A stretch of DNA of 64,000 nt from an uncultured Rhizobiaceae bacterium. Its GTDB lineage: Bacteria; Pseudomonadota; Alphaproteobacteria; UBA828. The notes below the pieces were generated by a model that saw only the letters and a program-made list of their open reading frames with translations, was not told where the DNA came from and ran no database searches. The position numbers were made by a program, and so were the translations under genes. The stretch spans positions 4,261 through 68,260 of the forward strand of contig CAYSDJ010000008.1 in assembly GCA_964429775.1 (NCBI GenBank), read 5' to 3'. How positions within the stretch are numbered: position 1 is the stretch's first letter; each line of letters begins with the position of its first letter. This document shows positions 5,399-46,848 of this stretch, in pieces.

Positions 5399-6043
5399 AT
5401 GAAGGTTTTAATCGTATCGGACACGATTTGTCCCTGGTGCTTTGTTGGCAAGCGGCGCTTCGAACGCGCATTGGCCGAGCGCCCAGAAATTACCCCGGAT
5501 ATCGAATGGCGACCCTTCCAGCTCAATCCGCAAATGCCGGCGGCCGGGCTCGACCGCAAGACCTATATGCGGGCGAAATTCGGCAGCGATGAGCAGGCTG
5601 CGGAAATCTATCAGGCAATCGAGCAGGCCGGCGAAGCGGAAAAAATTCCGTTTGCCTTCGACGCCATCACACGCGTCCCCAATACCGTTGCCTCTCACCG
5701 GCTGATCAGTTGGTCGCTGAAGCTCGGCCGCCAGGACGCCGTGGTCGAAGGCCTATTTCGCTGTTATTTCGAGGACGGCAAGGATATCGGCGAGATCGAT
5801 GTTCTCGCCGCCGTCGCCGGCGAGGCCGGGCTGGATGAAGCCGAGGCGGCGGCCTATCTCGCCAGCGAAGAGGGTGTCGAGCAAACGCTCGCCGAAACCC
5901 GCGAGGCGCAACAACTCGGCATATCCGGCGTACCCTGCTTTATATTCGATGGCAAATACGCTGTTTCCGGCGCGCAGGGGCCGGAAGTATTTTCTCAGGT
6001 GTTCGACTTGGCGCTACAGCCCGACGAAGCAGCGAGCGGCTAA
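5399..6043 (+). CDS. DsbA-family thiol:disulfide oxidoreductase (FrnE/2-hydroxychromene-2-carboxylate isomerase-like)
   Basis: MKVLIVSDTICPWCFVGKRR gives a CPWC thioredoxin-fold motif at the N-terminus, followed by a DsbA-like helical insert. Confidence 0.75.
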   Translation: MKVLIVSDTICPWCFVGKRRFERALAERPEITPDIEWRPFQLNPQMPAAGLDRKTYMRAKFGSDEQAAEIYQAIEQAGEAEKIPFAFDAITRVPNTVASHRLISWSLKLGRQDAVVEGLFRCYFEDGKDIGEIDVLAAVAGEAGLDEAEAAAYLASEEGVEQTLAETREAQQLGISGVPCFIFDGKYAVSGAQGPEVFSQVFDLALQPDEAASG

Positions 6044-42030: not shown

Positions 42031-42411
42031 TTACCAGTGCCAAACCTGGTCATGCGCATCGCATATGGCGGGAATATTCGAGCGCGATACCTGCTTGACG
42101 CCATCAACCAGATTTGCGTCCGCCAAGCCGCGCTCGGCCAAATCCTCGCTGGCGATATACACCTCTACGCCTTTGCCGACCAGGCCGCCGATATCGCGCG
42201 CCATGTTCGGCGGTTGGGTTTGTTTCCAGGCGCCAAATGAGAGCCCGGATGCGTCCTGGCCGTTGATCGCGTAATTGACGGCATTGCCGCGCAACAAAAC
42301 ATTGAGATCAGCACCCGCACCTTTCATCGCGTGGCTGATCCAGACGATGGTATCGTCTTGCTCCTCTTGCGTGGCGCGGTAGGCCGATTCGATAACCTGC
42401 AATACTTTCAT
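42031..42411 (-). CDS. DsrH/TusB-like sulfur-relay family protein
   Basis: Small protein, third gene of the DsrEFH-like triad, with a TusB-like LLRGNAV...W C-terminus. Confidence 0.45.
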   Translation of the reverse strand: MKVLQVIESAYRATQEEQDDTIVWISHAMKGAGADLNVLLRGNAVNYAINGQDASGLSFGAWKQTQPPNMARDIGGLVGKGVEVYIASEDLAERGLADANLVDGVKQVSRSNIPAICDAHDQVWHW

Positions 42412-42420
42412 GATCCCCTC

Positions 42421-42834
42421 CTAGCGCGTGCCGATGGTGAGCGTGTTGTCGGACTCACCAGCCATGGACCAAAGATCCCCCGGCGTGCCGCGCCTGACAC
42501 CATCGATGGCATCGCCGACGCCGCGTTCATCGACACAGAGACCGCAATTCACCCAATCCAGTTTACCGCCATTTTTCTTGGCCTCGGTGATCAGCGCCGC
42601 GACCCAATCCTTGGGCAAGGGATGGTTTTCCTCTTCCACGTCATGTCCGTGCACCGCATTGGGATGCGCCGCCTGCTGGGCAAATGGCACACATACGGCC
42701 CCCTCATAAGCGAATACGTTTATGTCATAGCCGCGCGCCGCGGCGATATTCATCAGACGCAGCGCCGTGGTGTTGCGCGCGCTTTCATAGGGCGCGTCCA
42801 TCAGCGCAAATGTCAGTGTTTTCTTGTCAGCCAT
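42421..42834 (-). CDS. DsrE/TusD-like sulfur-relay protein with conserved Cys (NCGLC) and His-containing insertion
   Basis: MADKK...APYES N-terminal block. A Cys lies in the position of the TusD/DsrE active-site Cys (WVNCGLCVDERGV). Confidence 0.55.
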   Translation of the reverse strand: MADKKTLTFALMDAPYESARNTTALRLMNIAAARGYDINVFAYEGAVCVPFAQQAAHPNAVHGHDVEEENHPLPKDWVAALITEAKKNGGKLDWVNCGLCVDERGVGDAIDGVRRGTPGDLWSMAGESDNTLTIGTR

Positions 42835-42844
42835 TATCCCCTCC

Positions 42845-43171
42845 CTAATGCCACATGGTTTTGCAGCCGTCGGCCAAACCGTCGACGACAACATCCAGCG
42901 GCGATGATTTCACCCCGACCTGCAATTGCGCCGCATCAATGGCGCGTTCGCGCAGCGAAAAATCATCCGCCAACACTTCGATCCCCGCTTTTATGGCGCT
43001 TTCCAGCGCATCGGAACTGGCGCCTTGACGCGCCGGCAACACACCGTTCTGAACGAGAAACAAGGTGACCTCATTGCCTTCGTTCGCGAGGCCCCGGGCG
43101 AGGTCGAAATAATTGCCAACATCAGCTGATTCATAAGGGTCGCGAGATTCGATTAAGAGATATTTGCTCAT
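42845..43171 (-). CDS. DsrE/DsrF-family protein (no active-site Cys; DsrF/TusC-like)
   Basis: MSKYLLIESRDPYES...VTLFLVQNGV has the DsrE/F fold pattern. It is the first gene of the triad. Confidence 0.55.
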   Translation of the reverse strand: MSKYLLIESRDPYESADVGNYFDLARGLANEGNEVTLFLVQNGVLPARQGASSDALESAIKAGIEVLADDFSLRERAIDAAQLQVGVKSSPLDVVVDGLADGCKTMWH

Positions 43172-43321
43172 CTATTGTCCTCCCCATTTAAGTCGCCCAA
43201 CAATGCTAGGTCCGCTTGCGCCCGTCGGCCAATAAACTAATCGTGTGCGAACGTTGGCGCGACCGGGTAGCATGGCGAAAATTCATACAGCCATGCGAGT
43301 TTCAACAAGAAGGGAGACAAA

Positions 43322-43912
43322 ATGAGTTCCGACGCAGCGGATGCAAAAACAGCGCTTAGAGTGAGAGCGCTTGAATCGTTGCTGCTCGAAAAGGGGCTGA
43401 TCGAGACGGACGCGATCGACGAGCTGGTCGATATGTTCGAAAACCGGCTTGGCCCCTGGAACGGCGCCAAGGTCGTCGCCCGGGCATGGACCGACCCCGC
43501 CTTTAAGGAGCGGCTGTTGCAGGACGGCACGGCGGCGCTGGCGGATATGGGTTTCGACACCATCCAGGGCGAAGAAATGGTGATCGTCGAGAACACCCCA
43601 GCTATCCACAATGTTATCGTCTGCACGCTCTGTTCCTGCTTCCCCTGGGCGGTCCTCGGCCTGCCGCCGGTATGGTATAAATCGGCGCCCTACCGGGCCG
43701 AGGCGGCGCGCGACCCGCGTGGTGTGCTGCGCGAATTCGGCACCGAAATAGACGGCGAGACCGAAGTACGCGTGTGGGACAGCAATGCCGAGCTACGCTA
43801 CATGGTGTTGCCCGAGCGGCCGGCGGGAACCGACGATATGGACGCAGCGGCGCTGGCCGAGCTGGTCACACGCGATTCGATGATCGGTGTCAGCAAGGTG
43901 GCGCCGCCATGA
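43322..43912 (+). CDS. nitrile hydratase alpha subunit-like protein (Co-type claw motif VCTLCSC)
   Basis: Near-collinear with Rhodococcus NHase alpha. The [10 protein letters not shown] metal-binding claw lies at nt 43622..43639. An RBS AGAAGGGAG precedes the ATG. Confidence 0.9.
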
Positions 43913-43937
43913 GCGCGCGCCTGAGAGGAGACCTGAG

Positions 43938-44249
43938 ATGAACAGCATTCACGATATGGGCGGCATGCACGGCCTCGGACCGCTTGATCTTTCAGACGAT
44001 GATATCGTCTTTCATGCCGCCTGGGAGGGCCGCGTCATGGCGCTGGCCCGCGCCATGATGGCGGGCAAGCACTTCAATCTCGATGAATACCGTCACGCCA
44101 TGGAGCGCATCGACCCGGCCCGCTACCTGCAACTCAGCTATTATGAGAAATGGCTGGAAGGCACGCTCACGATGCTGATGGAGAAGGGCGTTATCACGCA
44201 GCTGGAGTTCGATGCGCATTTAAACAAATTGACAGAGGCGGATTCGTGA
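43938..44249 (+). CDS. nitrile hydratase beta subunit, N-terminal-half protein (split beta)
   Basis: MNSIHDMGGMHGLGP...FHAAWEGRVMA matches the NHase beta N-domain. It ends at the domain linker. Confidence 0.8.
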   Translation: MNSIHDMGGMHGLGPLDLSDDDIVFHAAWEGRVMALARAMMAGKHFNLDEYRHAMERIDPARYLQLSYYEKWLEGTLTMLMEKGVITQLEFDAHLNKLTEADS

Positions 44250-44599
44250 TGCCGGTGGTCAATCTCGAATTGGTCAAGAGCCTCTACAAAACCCCTGGCG
44301 CCGCCCGCTTGCCGGTCGATGTGGCGCCGCGCTTCAAGGCCGGCGATTCGATCGTCGCGCGCAATATCAACCCGCCCGGTCACACCCGCCTGCCGCGCTA
44401 TATCCGCGACAAGAAAGGTGTTGTCGAACACGATCTCGGCGTCTTCCACCTACCCGATTCACGCGCCGCCGGCAGCGGCGATAACGCGCAGCACATGTAC
44501 ACCGTGCGCTTCGAAGCACGCGAAGTCTGGGGCGACGAAGCGCCGGCCAATGACAGCCTGCGGATTACACTGTGGGACGACTATATGAACCCGGCCTGA
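44249..44599 (+). CDS. nitrile hydratase beta subunit, C-terminal-half protein (split beta)
   Basis: The ATG overlaps the previous stop (TGATG). FKAGDSIVARNINPPGHTRLPRYIRDKKG...YTVRFEAREVWG matches the NHase beta C-domain. Confidence 0.8.
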   Translation: MPVVNLELVKSLYKTPGAARLPVDVAPRFKAGDSIVARNINPPGHTRLPRYIRDKKGVVEHDLGVFHLPDSRAAGSGDNAQHMYTVRFEAREVWGDEAPANDSLRITLWDDYMNPA

Positions 44600-44621
44600 G
44601 CGGCAAATAAGAGAAACAGCG

Positions 44622-45344
44622 ATGCGAAAAATCCTCGCCGTGCCGAACCTCACCATGCCCGAGCAACGTGCCGGCGCCACCCTGCCGCGCGACAGCGACG
44701 ATGTGGTTTTCTCCGAGGCATGGCAGGCACATGCCTTTGCCGTGATTATGTCGCTCTATCAGGATGGTCATTATAATTGGGCCGAATGGGACGATTATCT
44801 CGGCCATTGCATCCAGGCACCCGGGCATTTCGCCAAAGCCCCGGGCGAAGACACCGAAGGCGGCGAGGAAGCGATTCGTACTGGAAGCAATCGAAGCCCG
44901 TTCCTTACCGCCTGTGAGCGTGACGGCGCGAAATATTATCATTTTTGGCTCGCCGCGACGGAACAATTGCTCGACGCCAAAGGCCTGGTGAGCACCGCCG
45001 AATTGGATGCGCGTGTTGCCGCCATCGACAAGGCCGAACAGTCCGGGCCGCGCTTTAGCGCCGGAGGGCGCGTTCTGGTGCGAGACATCAAGCGCGAGGG
45101 CCACACCCATCTGCCGCTCTATCTGCGCGGCAAGACCGGCGTGGTGGAAAGCGACCGCGGCTTGTTCGTCTTTCCCGAAGGTGCCGGGCATAATCATGAT
45201 CACGATCATAAGCATGACGGTGCCGACACCCTGCAGCATGTCTTTTGCGTCCGCTTTTCAGCAACGGATATTTGGGGTGAATCAGCTTCCGCCACACATG
45301 ATTTGAATTTCAATCTCTGGGACTATCAGTTGGAGGCAGCATGA
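44622..45344 (+). CDS. full-length NHase beta-like paralogue / accessory (activator)-like protein with His-rich insertion (GHNHDHDHKHDG)
   Basis: The N-terminus (LPRDSDDVVFSEAWQAHAFAV) resembles NHase activator/accessory proteins. The C-terminus (GGRVLVRDIKREGHTHLPLYLRGKTG...FCVRFSATDIWG) resembles the beta C-domain. Confidence 0.7.
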   Translation: MRKILAVPNLTMPEQRAGATLPRDSDDVVFSEAWQAHAFAVIMSLYQDGHYNWAEWDDYLGHCIQAPGHFAKAPGEDTEGGEEAIRTGSNRSPFLTACERDGAKYYHFWLAATEQLLDAKGLVSTAELDARVAAIDKAEQSGPRFSAGGRVLVRDIKREGHTHLPLYLRGKTGVVESDRGLFVFPEGAGHNHDHDHKHDGADTLQHVFCVRFSATDIWGESASATHDLNFNLWDYQLEAA

Positions 45345-45943
45345 TGGAAAAATCTGCTGCAGGTGAGCTGGCACGCCTGATTCGTGAGGATGACGGCGCT
45401 CTCTATGCCGACGATGCCGCCGCCCGCGCCATCGCCATCGTCATGAACCTGTTTCACCAGGAGCATTACGCCTGGCCGCAATGGGTCGACAAGTTCAGCG
45501 CCGAAATCGATGCGCCGGGGCATTTCCGGCATTCGCCGGATAGCGCCGAACACGCCGAGGCCGTGCTGAGCGGTGACGCCAAGCGCATCAATCGCAATTA
45601 CGCCGAGCTGTGGCTCGCCGCTTGTGAAAAGCTATTGCAAGAAAAAGGACTAACGACGCCAGCTGAACTTAGCGCCAAGCTGGCAACGCTACAGCCTAAA
45701 CAACCGCCCGCCCATGCCTTCGCGCTGGGCACGCGCGTTATTGTGCGCGATATCGAACCGTCTGAATCAGATCATTTGCCGCTATTCATACGCGGCAAGG
45801 CCGGCAGCGTGGAACGGCAATTGGGCGAGGCTAAATATAATGTTCGCTTCACGGCGCAAGAGATTTGGGGCACCGACGCACCCGGGCGGGACAGTTTAAA
45901 CTTCACCATCGCGCACCAATATCTGTCGCCCGAAAACTCCTAG
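45341..45943 (+). CDS. second full-length NHase beta-like paralogue / accessory-like protein
   Basis: The ATG overlaps the previous stop (ATGA). Features are DDGALYADDAAARAIAIV... and a beta C-domain-like GTRVIVRDIEPSESDHLPLFIRGKAG...YNVRFTAQEIWG. Confidence 0.7.
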   Translation: MMEKSAAGELARLIREDDGALYADDAAARAIAIVMNLFHQEHYAWPQWVDKFSAEIDAPGHFRHSPDSAEHAEAVLSGDAKRINRNYAELWLAACEKLLQEKGLTTPAELSAKLATLQPKQPPAHAFALGTRVIVRDIEPSESDHLPLFIRGKAGSVERQLGEAKYNVRFTAQEIWGTDAPGRDSLNFTIAHQYLSPENS

Positions 45944-46848
45944 AGCCAGGCGGCGCCGCGCATGCCGCTTTCGGGCCCGTGTGCCGCTTTGACCAAGCGC
46001 GTGGCGGTTGGTTTCGTGCCGGTATGGCGCCCCCAAAGCTCGGGAACCTGCTCATAGAGGCCGCTGATTTCCGACAGGCCGCCGCCGAGAACAATGATAT
46101 CGGGGTCGAAAAAATTGATCGCGCTCGCCAGTGCGCGGGCCAGACGCTCGGCATATTGCGAGATCGCCTGTTTGGCCGCCGCGTCGTTCTCCTCGGCGAG
46201 CCGCGAGATTTCCTTGGCTTTGGCCTCGCTTCCGCTCAACGCCTGATAATCGCGCGACAAGGCGGCGCCGTTGAGCCAGGTTTCGATACATCCTATCTGG
46301 CCGCAGCCGCACATTGTTTCCGCGCCATCCTCCGGCGTGCGCCACGGCAAGGGATTGTGGCCCCATTCGCCGGCAATGGCGTTGGCGCCGGTGACGATTT
46401 GCCCATTGACGACAATGGCGCCGCCGACACCGGTGCCGAGGATGACGCCAAACACCAGCTTGGCGCCGGCAGCGGAACCATCCGTCGCCTCCGAGAGAGC
46501 AAAACAATTGGCGTCATTGCCGATATGGACCGGACGCTCAAACAGGCGCTCGAGATCGGGGCGGAACGGCTTGTCGCGAAGCCACGGCAAATTGGCCACC
46601 ATGACGGGCTCGCCCGAACGATTGACCACGCCCGGCATGCTGATGCCGATCCTGTTGGCCCGCCCGGCATGTTCCTCGAGATGCGAGACGGTATCGGAAA
46701 TATTCTCGACGGTGCCGTTATAATCGCGCGATATTTCGCTGCGAAAGCGCGCCCGTTCCCTGCCCTCACCGTCGAGGATCATGGCTGCTATTTTTGTTCC
46801 GCCGATATCGATTCCGATACGCATATCAGCGCCGCCGGTTTCATTCAT
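45940..46848 (-). CDS. ROK-family sugar kinase (N-acetylglucosamine kinase-like)
   Basis: MRIGIDIGGTKI and the CxCGxxGC zinc motif (CGCGQIGCIE). An alternative start lies at 46824. Confidence 0.8.
   Translation of the reverse strand: MNETGGADMRIGIDIGGTKIAAMILDGEGRERARFRSEISRDYNGTVENISDTVSHLEEHAGRANRIGISMPGVVNRSGEPVMVANLPWLRDKPFRPDLERLFERPVHIGNDANCFALSEATDGSAAGAKLVFGVILGTGVGGAIVVNGQIVTGANAIAGEWGHNPLPWRTPEDGAETMCGCGQIGCIETWLNGAALSRDYQALSGSEAKAKEISRLAEENDAAAKQAISQYAERLARALASAINFFDPDIIVLGGGLSEISGLYEQVPELWGRHTGTKPTATRLVKAAHGPESGMRGAAWL

Follow-up and report, generated by a model that had tools for sequence, protein, structure and literature searches.

A split nitrile hydratase β subunit encoded by two overlapping genes in an uncultured Rhizobiaceae bacterium

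In a stretch of 64,000 nucleotides from an uncultured Rhizobiaceae bacterium (assembly GCA_964429775.1, contig CAYSDJ010000008.1; hereafter termed the window), the β subunit of a cobalt-type nitrile hydratase (NHase) is encoded not by one gene but by two overlapping ones, here called βN and βC. The two genes meet at the boundary between the β domains, keep the catalytic residues, are together collinear with an unsplit β subunit, and recur as separate genes in homologues from many other bacteria. The locus very probably specifies a three-polypeptide Co-NHase, in which βN and βC would arise through translational coupling and associate non-covalently with α to give an enzyme that presumably hydrates nitriles. 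Enzymes with a split β are already known; the window enzyme represents a new, uncharacterised line that is distinct in gene order, accessory genes and lineage.

The split β gene and its operon

The NHase locus comprises five closely packed genes on the forward strand (43322-45943) that encode, in this order, α, βN, βC and two further proteins, ORF4 and ORF5 (Table 1). The intergenic gaps are short, with 25 nt between α and βN and 22 nt between βC and ORF4, and the ORF4 stop and ORF5 start codons share a 4-nt overlap (ATGA). A promoter and terminator scan of 42900-46300 returned no signal exceeding shuffled expectation.

Table 1. Features of the NHase locus and its immediate neighbours, in window coordinates.
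Feature	Position	Strand	Description
DsrE/DsrE/DsrH-like trio	42031..43171	-	TusBCD-like genes
α	43322..43912	+	196 aa, 21.5 kDa (21.45); PF02979 (NHase_alpha), E 1.4e-87
βN	43938..44249	+	103 aa, 11.8 kDa (11.78); PF21006 (NHase_beta_N) only
Shine-Dalgarno-like GAGG	44235..44238	+	within the last βN codons, 11-14 nt 5' of the βC ATG
TGATG junction	44247..44251	+	βN TGA and βC ATG, one base in common
βC	44249..44599	+	116 aa, 12.9 kDa (12.92); PF02211 (NHase_beta_C) only
ORF4	44622..45344	+	unsplit β-like paralogue, 240 aa, 26.6 kDa
ORF5	45341..45943	+	second, more degenerate β-like paralogue, 200 aa, 22.1 kDa
ROK-family kinase gene	45940..46848	-	convergent with ORF5

The βN reading frame most plausibly starts at the ATG at 43938 (MNSIHDMGG...) and ends in ...HLNKLTEADS, followed by a TGA stop codon at 44247-44249. 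The ATG of βC (44249-44251), which opens the sequence MPVVNLELV, overlaps this stop codon by one base (gtGATGcc); a GTG at 44246, in frame with βC, is a possible alternative start. An initial annotation of the locus had placed this overlapping stop and start at the domain boundary, and the DNA sequence, Pfam and NCBIfam all agree with that placement. The one-base overlap, together with the GAGG motif, would couple the translation of the two genes and thereby supply the two halves in roughly equal amounts.

The domain content of the two products mirrors that of a conventional β subunit. PF21006 matches βN with an E value of 2e-35 (profile positions 1-97 of 115), and PF02211 matches βC with an E value of 3.5e-30 (positions 3-97 of 98). 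The NCBIfam model for nitrile hydratase β, TIGR03888, is likewise divided between the two proteins, with profile positions 1-98 matched by βN and 115-226 by βC; the halves score 117.2 and 118.7, respectively, against a cut-off of 152.2 that applies to the whole protein. Among solved structures, both halves are closest to the β subunit of the Pseudomonas putida NRRL-18668 enzyme (3qxe_B; E 1.7e-24 for βN and 1e-39 for βC). βN aligns to residues 1-90 of this chain, extending to about residue 97, and the βC profile to residues 104-219. The lengths of the two halves, 103 and 116 aa, add up to 219 aa, which is the length of the unsplit 3qxe_B; given this collinearity, no residues are missing. In addition, the segment that runs from the last N-domain helix to the conserved RFK(A/V)GD motif is 62-64 residues long in split and compact fused relatives alike, an equality across the junction that identifies the cut as a clean break within the inter-domain linker. 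Judged by these alignments, the cut separates the helical N domain from the SH3-like C domain, without loss of residues.

The residues expected of a functional β subunit are found on both sides of the cut. βN keeps the N-terminal arm MNSIHDMGG as well as Arg52, Tyr68/Tyr69 and Trp72, of which the Arg, Tyr and Trp positions are invariant among homologues. βC keeps HTRLPRY with the second catalytic Arg, and positions H45-T46-R47-P49-R50-Y51, of which R47 and R50 are the Arg residues of this motif, are invariant. By sequence comparison, the active-site Arg residues, the Tyr/Trp residues of the pocket and the arm are all kept, distributed across two predicted polypeptides.

The α subunit, the β-like accessory genes and the flanking genes

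The α subunit exceeds the cut-off of its NCBIfam model (TIGR01323, 303.2 bits; cut-off 249.85) and carries a Co-type metal site, VCTLCSC, at the expected place. We also considered the locus as a thiocyanate hydrolase (SCNase) and rejected this identity, since α reaches 174.5 bits with the SCNase γ model TIGR03887, under its cut-off of 291.45. In one respect α departs from the Co-type pattern. A Tyr directly after the CSC sequence is typical of Co-type enzymes, and CTLCSCY is present in 68 of 76 relatives, whereas the window α and those of the five other members of its clade contain Phe at this position (CTLCSCF). This Phe in place of a near-universal Tyr suggests that metal handling may differ. 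In the enzyme from P. thermophila, mutation of the Tyr reportedly impaired cobalt loading, an effect said to be linked to interaction with the activator. If so, the Tyr-to-Phe change may accompany the unusual accessory proteins ORF4 and ORF5.

Both accessory proteins are related to β. The accessory-protein model TIGR03889 (cut-off 46) scores 56.9 for ORF4 and 41.1 for ORF5, i.e., above and below the cut-off, respectively. PF02211 matches ORF4 as well as ORF5 (E 6.2e-11 for the latter), and phmmer aligns residues 22-239 of ORF4 with residues 17-218 of P. putida β (3qyg_B; E 8.7e-19). Neither protein has the N-terminal arm or either of the two catalytic Arg residues; in ORF4, FRH is changed to YLGH and GHTRMPRY/GHTRLPRY to GHTHLPLY. 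ORF4 additionally contains a His/Asp-rich loop, GAGHNHDHDHKHDG, which varies in length and recurs in most aligned members of its family of ~240-aa proteins (47-91% identity). An AlphaFold (AF2) model of ORF4 has a mean pLDDT of 65, with a confident C domain and disordered segments at residues 1-28, 66-101 and 187-199, of which the third corresponds to the His loop. The best fold matches of this model are NHase β chains.

An ORF4-type gene lies 3' of the split β in every window-clade relative examined, whereas in other split clades the sole accessory gene is an ordinary one of ~130 aa, with no ORF4. Counterparts of ORF5, 216-221 aa in length, occur in loci L001 and L093, with none in L089, L091, L095 and L096.

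Described swapping chaperones of NHases are recognised by a position downstream of the structural genes, weak similarity to β, a mass below 17 kDa and the lack of a known metal-binding motif (PMC3511329). ORF4 has this position and the similarity to β, but it is larger and carries a candidate motif. Like P14K, NhlE and NhhG, ORF4 and ORF5 are β homologues encoded directly 3' of the structural genes; they differ from these proteins in being about twice as large and in retaining the β C-terminal domain, and ORF4 differs further from the small swapping chaperones in its His/Asp-rich, putatively metal-binding loop. We infer that ORF4 is a putative long, metal-binding variant of the swapping-chaperone type. 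ORF4 and ORF5 both exceed any described NHase swapping chaperone in size and may bind metal. They would most likely serve in cobalt delivery and maturation of α, as P14K and NhlE do, and not in catalysis.

The roles could in principle be reversed, with ORF4 acting as the structural β partner of α and with βN and βC serving as maturation factors, for instance βN as a chaperone like AnhD, the β N half of the Streptomyces canus enzyme. The name under which NCBI lists ORF4-family members in metagenome-assembled genomes (MAGs), 'nitrile hydratase subunit beta', would agree with such an assignment, as would the alignment of ORF4 over almost all of P. putida β and the chaperone activity of S. canus AnhD (PMC7329996). 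However, the arm and the two active-site Arg residues absent from ORF4 are precisely those that βN and βC keep invariantly, ORF4 passes the accessory-protein model, and the other split clades pair their split β with a gene of ~130 aa in place of ORF4. A structural role for ORF4 is thus improbable, and βN and βC remain by far the better candidates for the β partner of α.

Beyond the operon, the DsrE/DsrE/DsrH-like trio is divergent from α and lies 150 bp 5' of it. It was rejected as a core part of the system, being missing from L089/L090, an orthologue of 70% identity that is syntenic with the window on both flanks, and phmmer detected no homologue of the trio in the remaining NHase loci. An unrelated DsrE together with TusA adjoins the NHase cluster in L097, and a Cys/Met-PLP-NifU fusion gene is found there in L001 and L093; the association between NHase clusters and sulfur-trafficking genes is loose. 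At the other end, the 3' end of ORF5 overlaps the ROK-family kinase gene by 4 nt (45940-45943), with no terminator-like site between the two in the scan of 42900-46300, and a NagA-like deacetylase gene follows the kinase gene. Among the window, L001, L089, L091, L093 and L095-L097, we found no shared neighbouring gene, for an amidase or a transporter for example, that would hint at the substrate. The flanking genes differ from relative to relative and hence give no indication of it.

Conservation of the split among homologues

The split is widespread among homologous proteins. A search of 5.8 billion proteins yielded 69 relatives of βN, 50 of which are 97-110 aa long, and 104 relatives of βC, mostly 116-117 aa long; none in either set is 200 aa or longer. 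The best 41 βN matches (57-87% identity) all fall within 97-109 aa, one fragment excepted, and both Pfam domains occur together in six of the 104 βC relatives. Orthologues at 45-90% identity have the same two-gene arrangement, and its recurrence in dozens of diverged homologues means that it is not a chance pattern.

For a view at species level, we scanned one genome per species and classed the resulting 80 loci with HMMs made from βN and βC. The 77 β genes from these species-level loci comprise 18 split and 59 fused forms. In all 18 split loci, an ATG falls at positions 1-4 of the C-domain HMM and the junction is of the coupling type. The junctions themselves vary, including ATGA, TGATG, TAATG, TGAtATG and TGAcgATG as well as an 11-nt overlap. 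A GGAG, GAGG or AGGA motif precedes the βC start in 16 of 20 split junctions, mostly 8-14 nt before the ATG. Three of the 18 split loci come from cultured isolates, namely Roseobacter weihaiensis H9, Aquicoccus sp. SU-CL01552 and Sodalis sp. RH21, the last with a complete genome; six are singletons, five from MAGs and one from an isolate genome, in which an assembly indel is conceivable.

These junctions bear on the possibility that programmed ribosomal frameshifting at the overlap joins the two frames into a full-length β. Overlapping reading frames in different frames, and the equal lengths of fused and split forms, are what such a mechanism would leave behind. The arrangement at the boundary is nevertheless inconsistent from locus to locus, ranging from overlaps (ATGA, TGATG) to spacers of 1-2 nt (TGAtATG, TGAcgATG; L089) and one 11-nt overlap. 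A conserved slippery site is absent, three loci stop in TAA rather than TGA, and an ATG is present at every boundary. With junction sequence, spacing and frame relation all differing, programmed frameshifting is highly unlikely. The known three-subunit enzymes contain the two halves as distinct polypeptides (PMC7329996, PMC8574189).

An artefact is less credible still. An indel introduced in sequencing or assembly, or a frameshift that recently inactivated an intact β gene and made it a pseudogene, would draw on the facts that a single inserted base would fuse the two frames (TCG TGA TGC to TCG TGN ATG) and that close fused relatives of equal length exist. Against this, 16 separately assembled contigs from separate samples (ENA, JGI) encode an identical 103-aa βN protein, with identical gene order at the four of these places compared. 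Orthologues down to ~45% identity are split through junctions of differing sequence, the ATG invariably marks the exact point where the C domain begins, the Shine-Dalgarno-like motif recurs at the frequency given above, and catalytic residues are conserved in βN and βC alike. Stop-codon readthrough was rejected, because βC is never in frame with βN.

Comparison of homologues thus lends strong support to the split β as genuine, conserved across many bacteria and free of sequencing error. The initial annotation had argued for a true three-subunit enzyme over a random frameshift, and conservation of the split in orthologues, with the catalytic residues kept, upholds that argument.

Evolution of the split and relation to known enzymes

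Neighbour-joining distance trees of concatenated α and β (about 200-400 columns) unite the window with L001, L009, L011, L012 and L035 in a clade with a bootstrap value of 100. The initial annotation had pointed to orthologues as the place to look for a continuous β of ~220 aa; in this clade the comparison gave the opposite, as all six species-level members are split. The metagenomic orthologues examined in the clade are likewise all split, with differing junction sequences, and those at 52-70% identity keep the window layout. Outside the window clade, split and fused forms are interleaved, as illustrated by split L034, which is sister to fused L024 with a support of 87%. Fitch parsimony over 200 bootstrap trees requires at least four changes with α alone or β alone and at least five with both, with a median of 7-8, which indicates that the β gene was repeatedly split or re-fused. 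On these trees, the gene appears to have switched between the split and the fused state at least four times across the relatives, a count that covers fission and fusion together.

Several loci display further arrangements of β genes. In L010 (3285-5328), from a Rhodospirillaceae MAG, a fused β gene (236 aa), α, a βN and βC pair joined by TAATG, and an accessory gene follow one another, so that a single α gene lies between both forms of β. In the fused gene of L026, the sequence ...AKDGNLMPLFTKDMVP... spans the domain boundary (about 5990-6010) and retains the Met-Pro with which split βC proteins start; this dipeptide would fit either re-fusion or a state before fission. An extra gene encoding only a βN (104-107 aa) is inserted between α and βN in L001 (7681-8004), L093 (6681-7004) and L097 (3991-4305), and these loci therefore encode two alternative N halves per C half. 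The extra copies have intact catalytic and arm residues and differ at about residues 26-60, in the first half of the helical domain.

Among characterised enzymes, the Co-NHase of P. putida NRRL-18668 (PDB 3qxe; operon α-β-P14K), for which maturation by self-subunit swapping has been shown (PMC3511329), resembles the window locus in that α is encoded first, contains CTLCSC and is accompanied by a 3' accessory gene. Its β subunit, however, is a single polypeptide, whereas that of the window is two. Furthermore, P14K is smaller than 17 kDa and devoid of a metal-binding motif, whereas the window encodes two β-like proteins of 22-27 kDa.

Active three-subunit NHases have precedents in Streptomyces (PMC7329996, PMC8574189). 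Toyocamycin NHase (ToyJKL) from S. rimosus consists of α (21.2 kDa), β (10 kDa) and γ (11.4 kDa) subunits that form an (αβγ)2 hexamer (PMC8574189). ScNHase from S. canus CGMCC 13662 is composed of AnhD (10.41 kDa, the β N half), AnhE (11.35 kDa, the C half) and AnhA (21.33 kDa, α), encoded in the order anhD-anhE-anhA with no activator gene, and AnhD doubles as a chaperone (PMC7329996). ScNHase requires all three proteins; the full set is about 25-fold or more as active as the two-subunit combinations tested, and the anhD and anhE primers as published imply the overlap ATGACTGA (PMC7329996). Both systems share with the window separate and overlapping genes for the N and C halves, a dependence on cobalt, predicted in the case of the window enzyme, and an α subunit of ~21 kDa (PMC7329996, PMC8574189). 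They differ in several respects. The Streptomyces genes are ordered βN-βC-α and those of the window α-βN-βC, followed by two accessory-like genes; the Streptomyces halves are smaller, at 10-10.4 and 11.4 kDa compared to 11.8 and 12.9 kDa; and the hosts are Actinobacteria, whereas the nearest relatives of the window enzyme are α-first enzymes of proteobacteria. The different operon layout and these nearest relatives suggest, in a comparison that for ToyJKL and AnhDE rests on masses and published descriptions, that the fission in the window lineage was independent of the Streptomyces one. By analogy with toyocamycin NHase, βN, βC and α would assemble non-covalently, most likely as (α-βN-βC)2. 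A literature search, incomplete in coverage, for a proteobacterial α-first NHase with a split β retrieved no description.

A third split is known from SCNase of Thiobacillus thioparus (PDB 2dd4; β, α, γ), a member of the NHase family in which the equivalent of β is divided in the same linker. It had been proposed that the window break lies at the very same linker position as in this enzyme. Profile alignments with 2dd4_B and 2dd4_A confirm the inter-domain linker but assign the break to a different residue. Residues 48-144 of 2dd4_B match βN and residues 32-126 of 2dd4_A match βC, both distantly (E ~1e-7). Residue 144 of 2dd4_B corresponds to about the end of βN, with 13 residues remaining after it, and residue 32 of 2dd4_A corresponds to position 24 of βC, leaving about 8 extra residues at the start of 2dd4_A. 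In total, the linker pieces of SCNase are about 21 residues longer than those of the window. SCNase β (157 aa) also carries an N-terminal extension of ~47 residues that is absent from βN (103 aa).

A more far-reaching reading, which we put forward tentatively and regard as possible rather than probable, is that fission recurs and is selectively maintained because it yields a modular enzyme, with the marine alphaproteobacterial clade using alternative βN proteins and cobalt delivery by the ORF4 family. Different N halves, which line the substrate pocket, could then be combined with one α and one βC. In the same reading, the long, His-rich, full-length β-like proteins of the ORF4 family would form a class not described before that takes the place of the small swapping chaperones and co-varies with the Tyr-to-Phe change beside the metal site of α.

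The split β does not overturn the current understanding of the NHase family, yet it matters for how such loci are annotated. Annotation pipelines call the 103-aa protein 'nitrile hydratase subunit beta' and its 116-aa partner 'SH3-like domain-containing protein'; the ORF4 type, which its residues suggest to be catalytically incompetent, is also labelled 'subunit beta'. With these names, a real β could be taken for debris; where the split is recognised, false pseudogene calls are avoided. The repeated switching between split and fused forms at one linker is a clear case from nature of gene fission within an obligate heteromer. As NHases are industrial enzymes, these loci also offer leads for subunit engineering and heterologous maturation, namely a naturally tolerated cut site, alternative βN paralogues and a His-rich, β-like putative cobalt chaperone.
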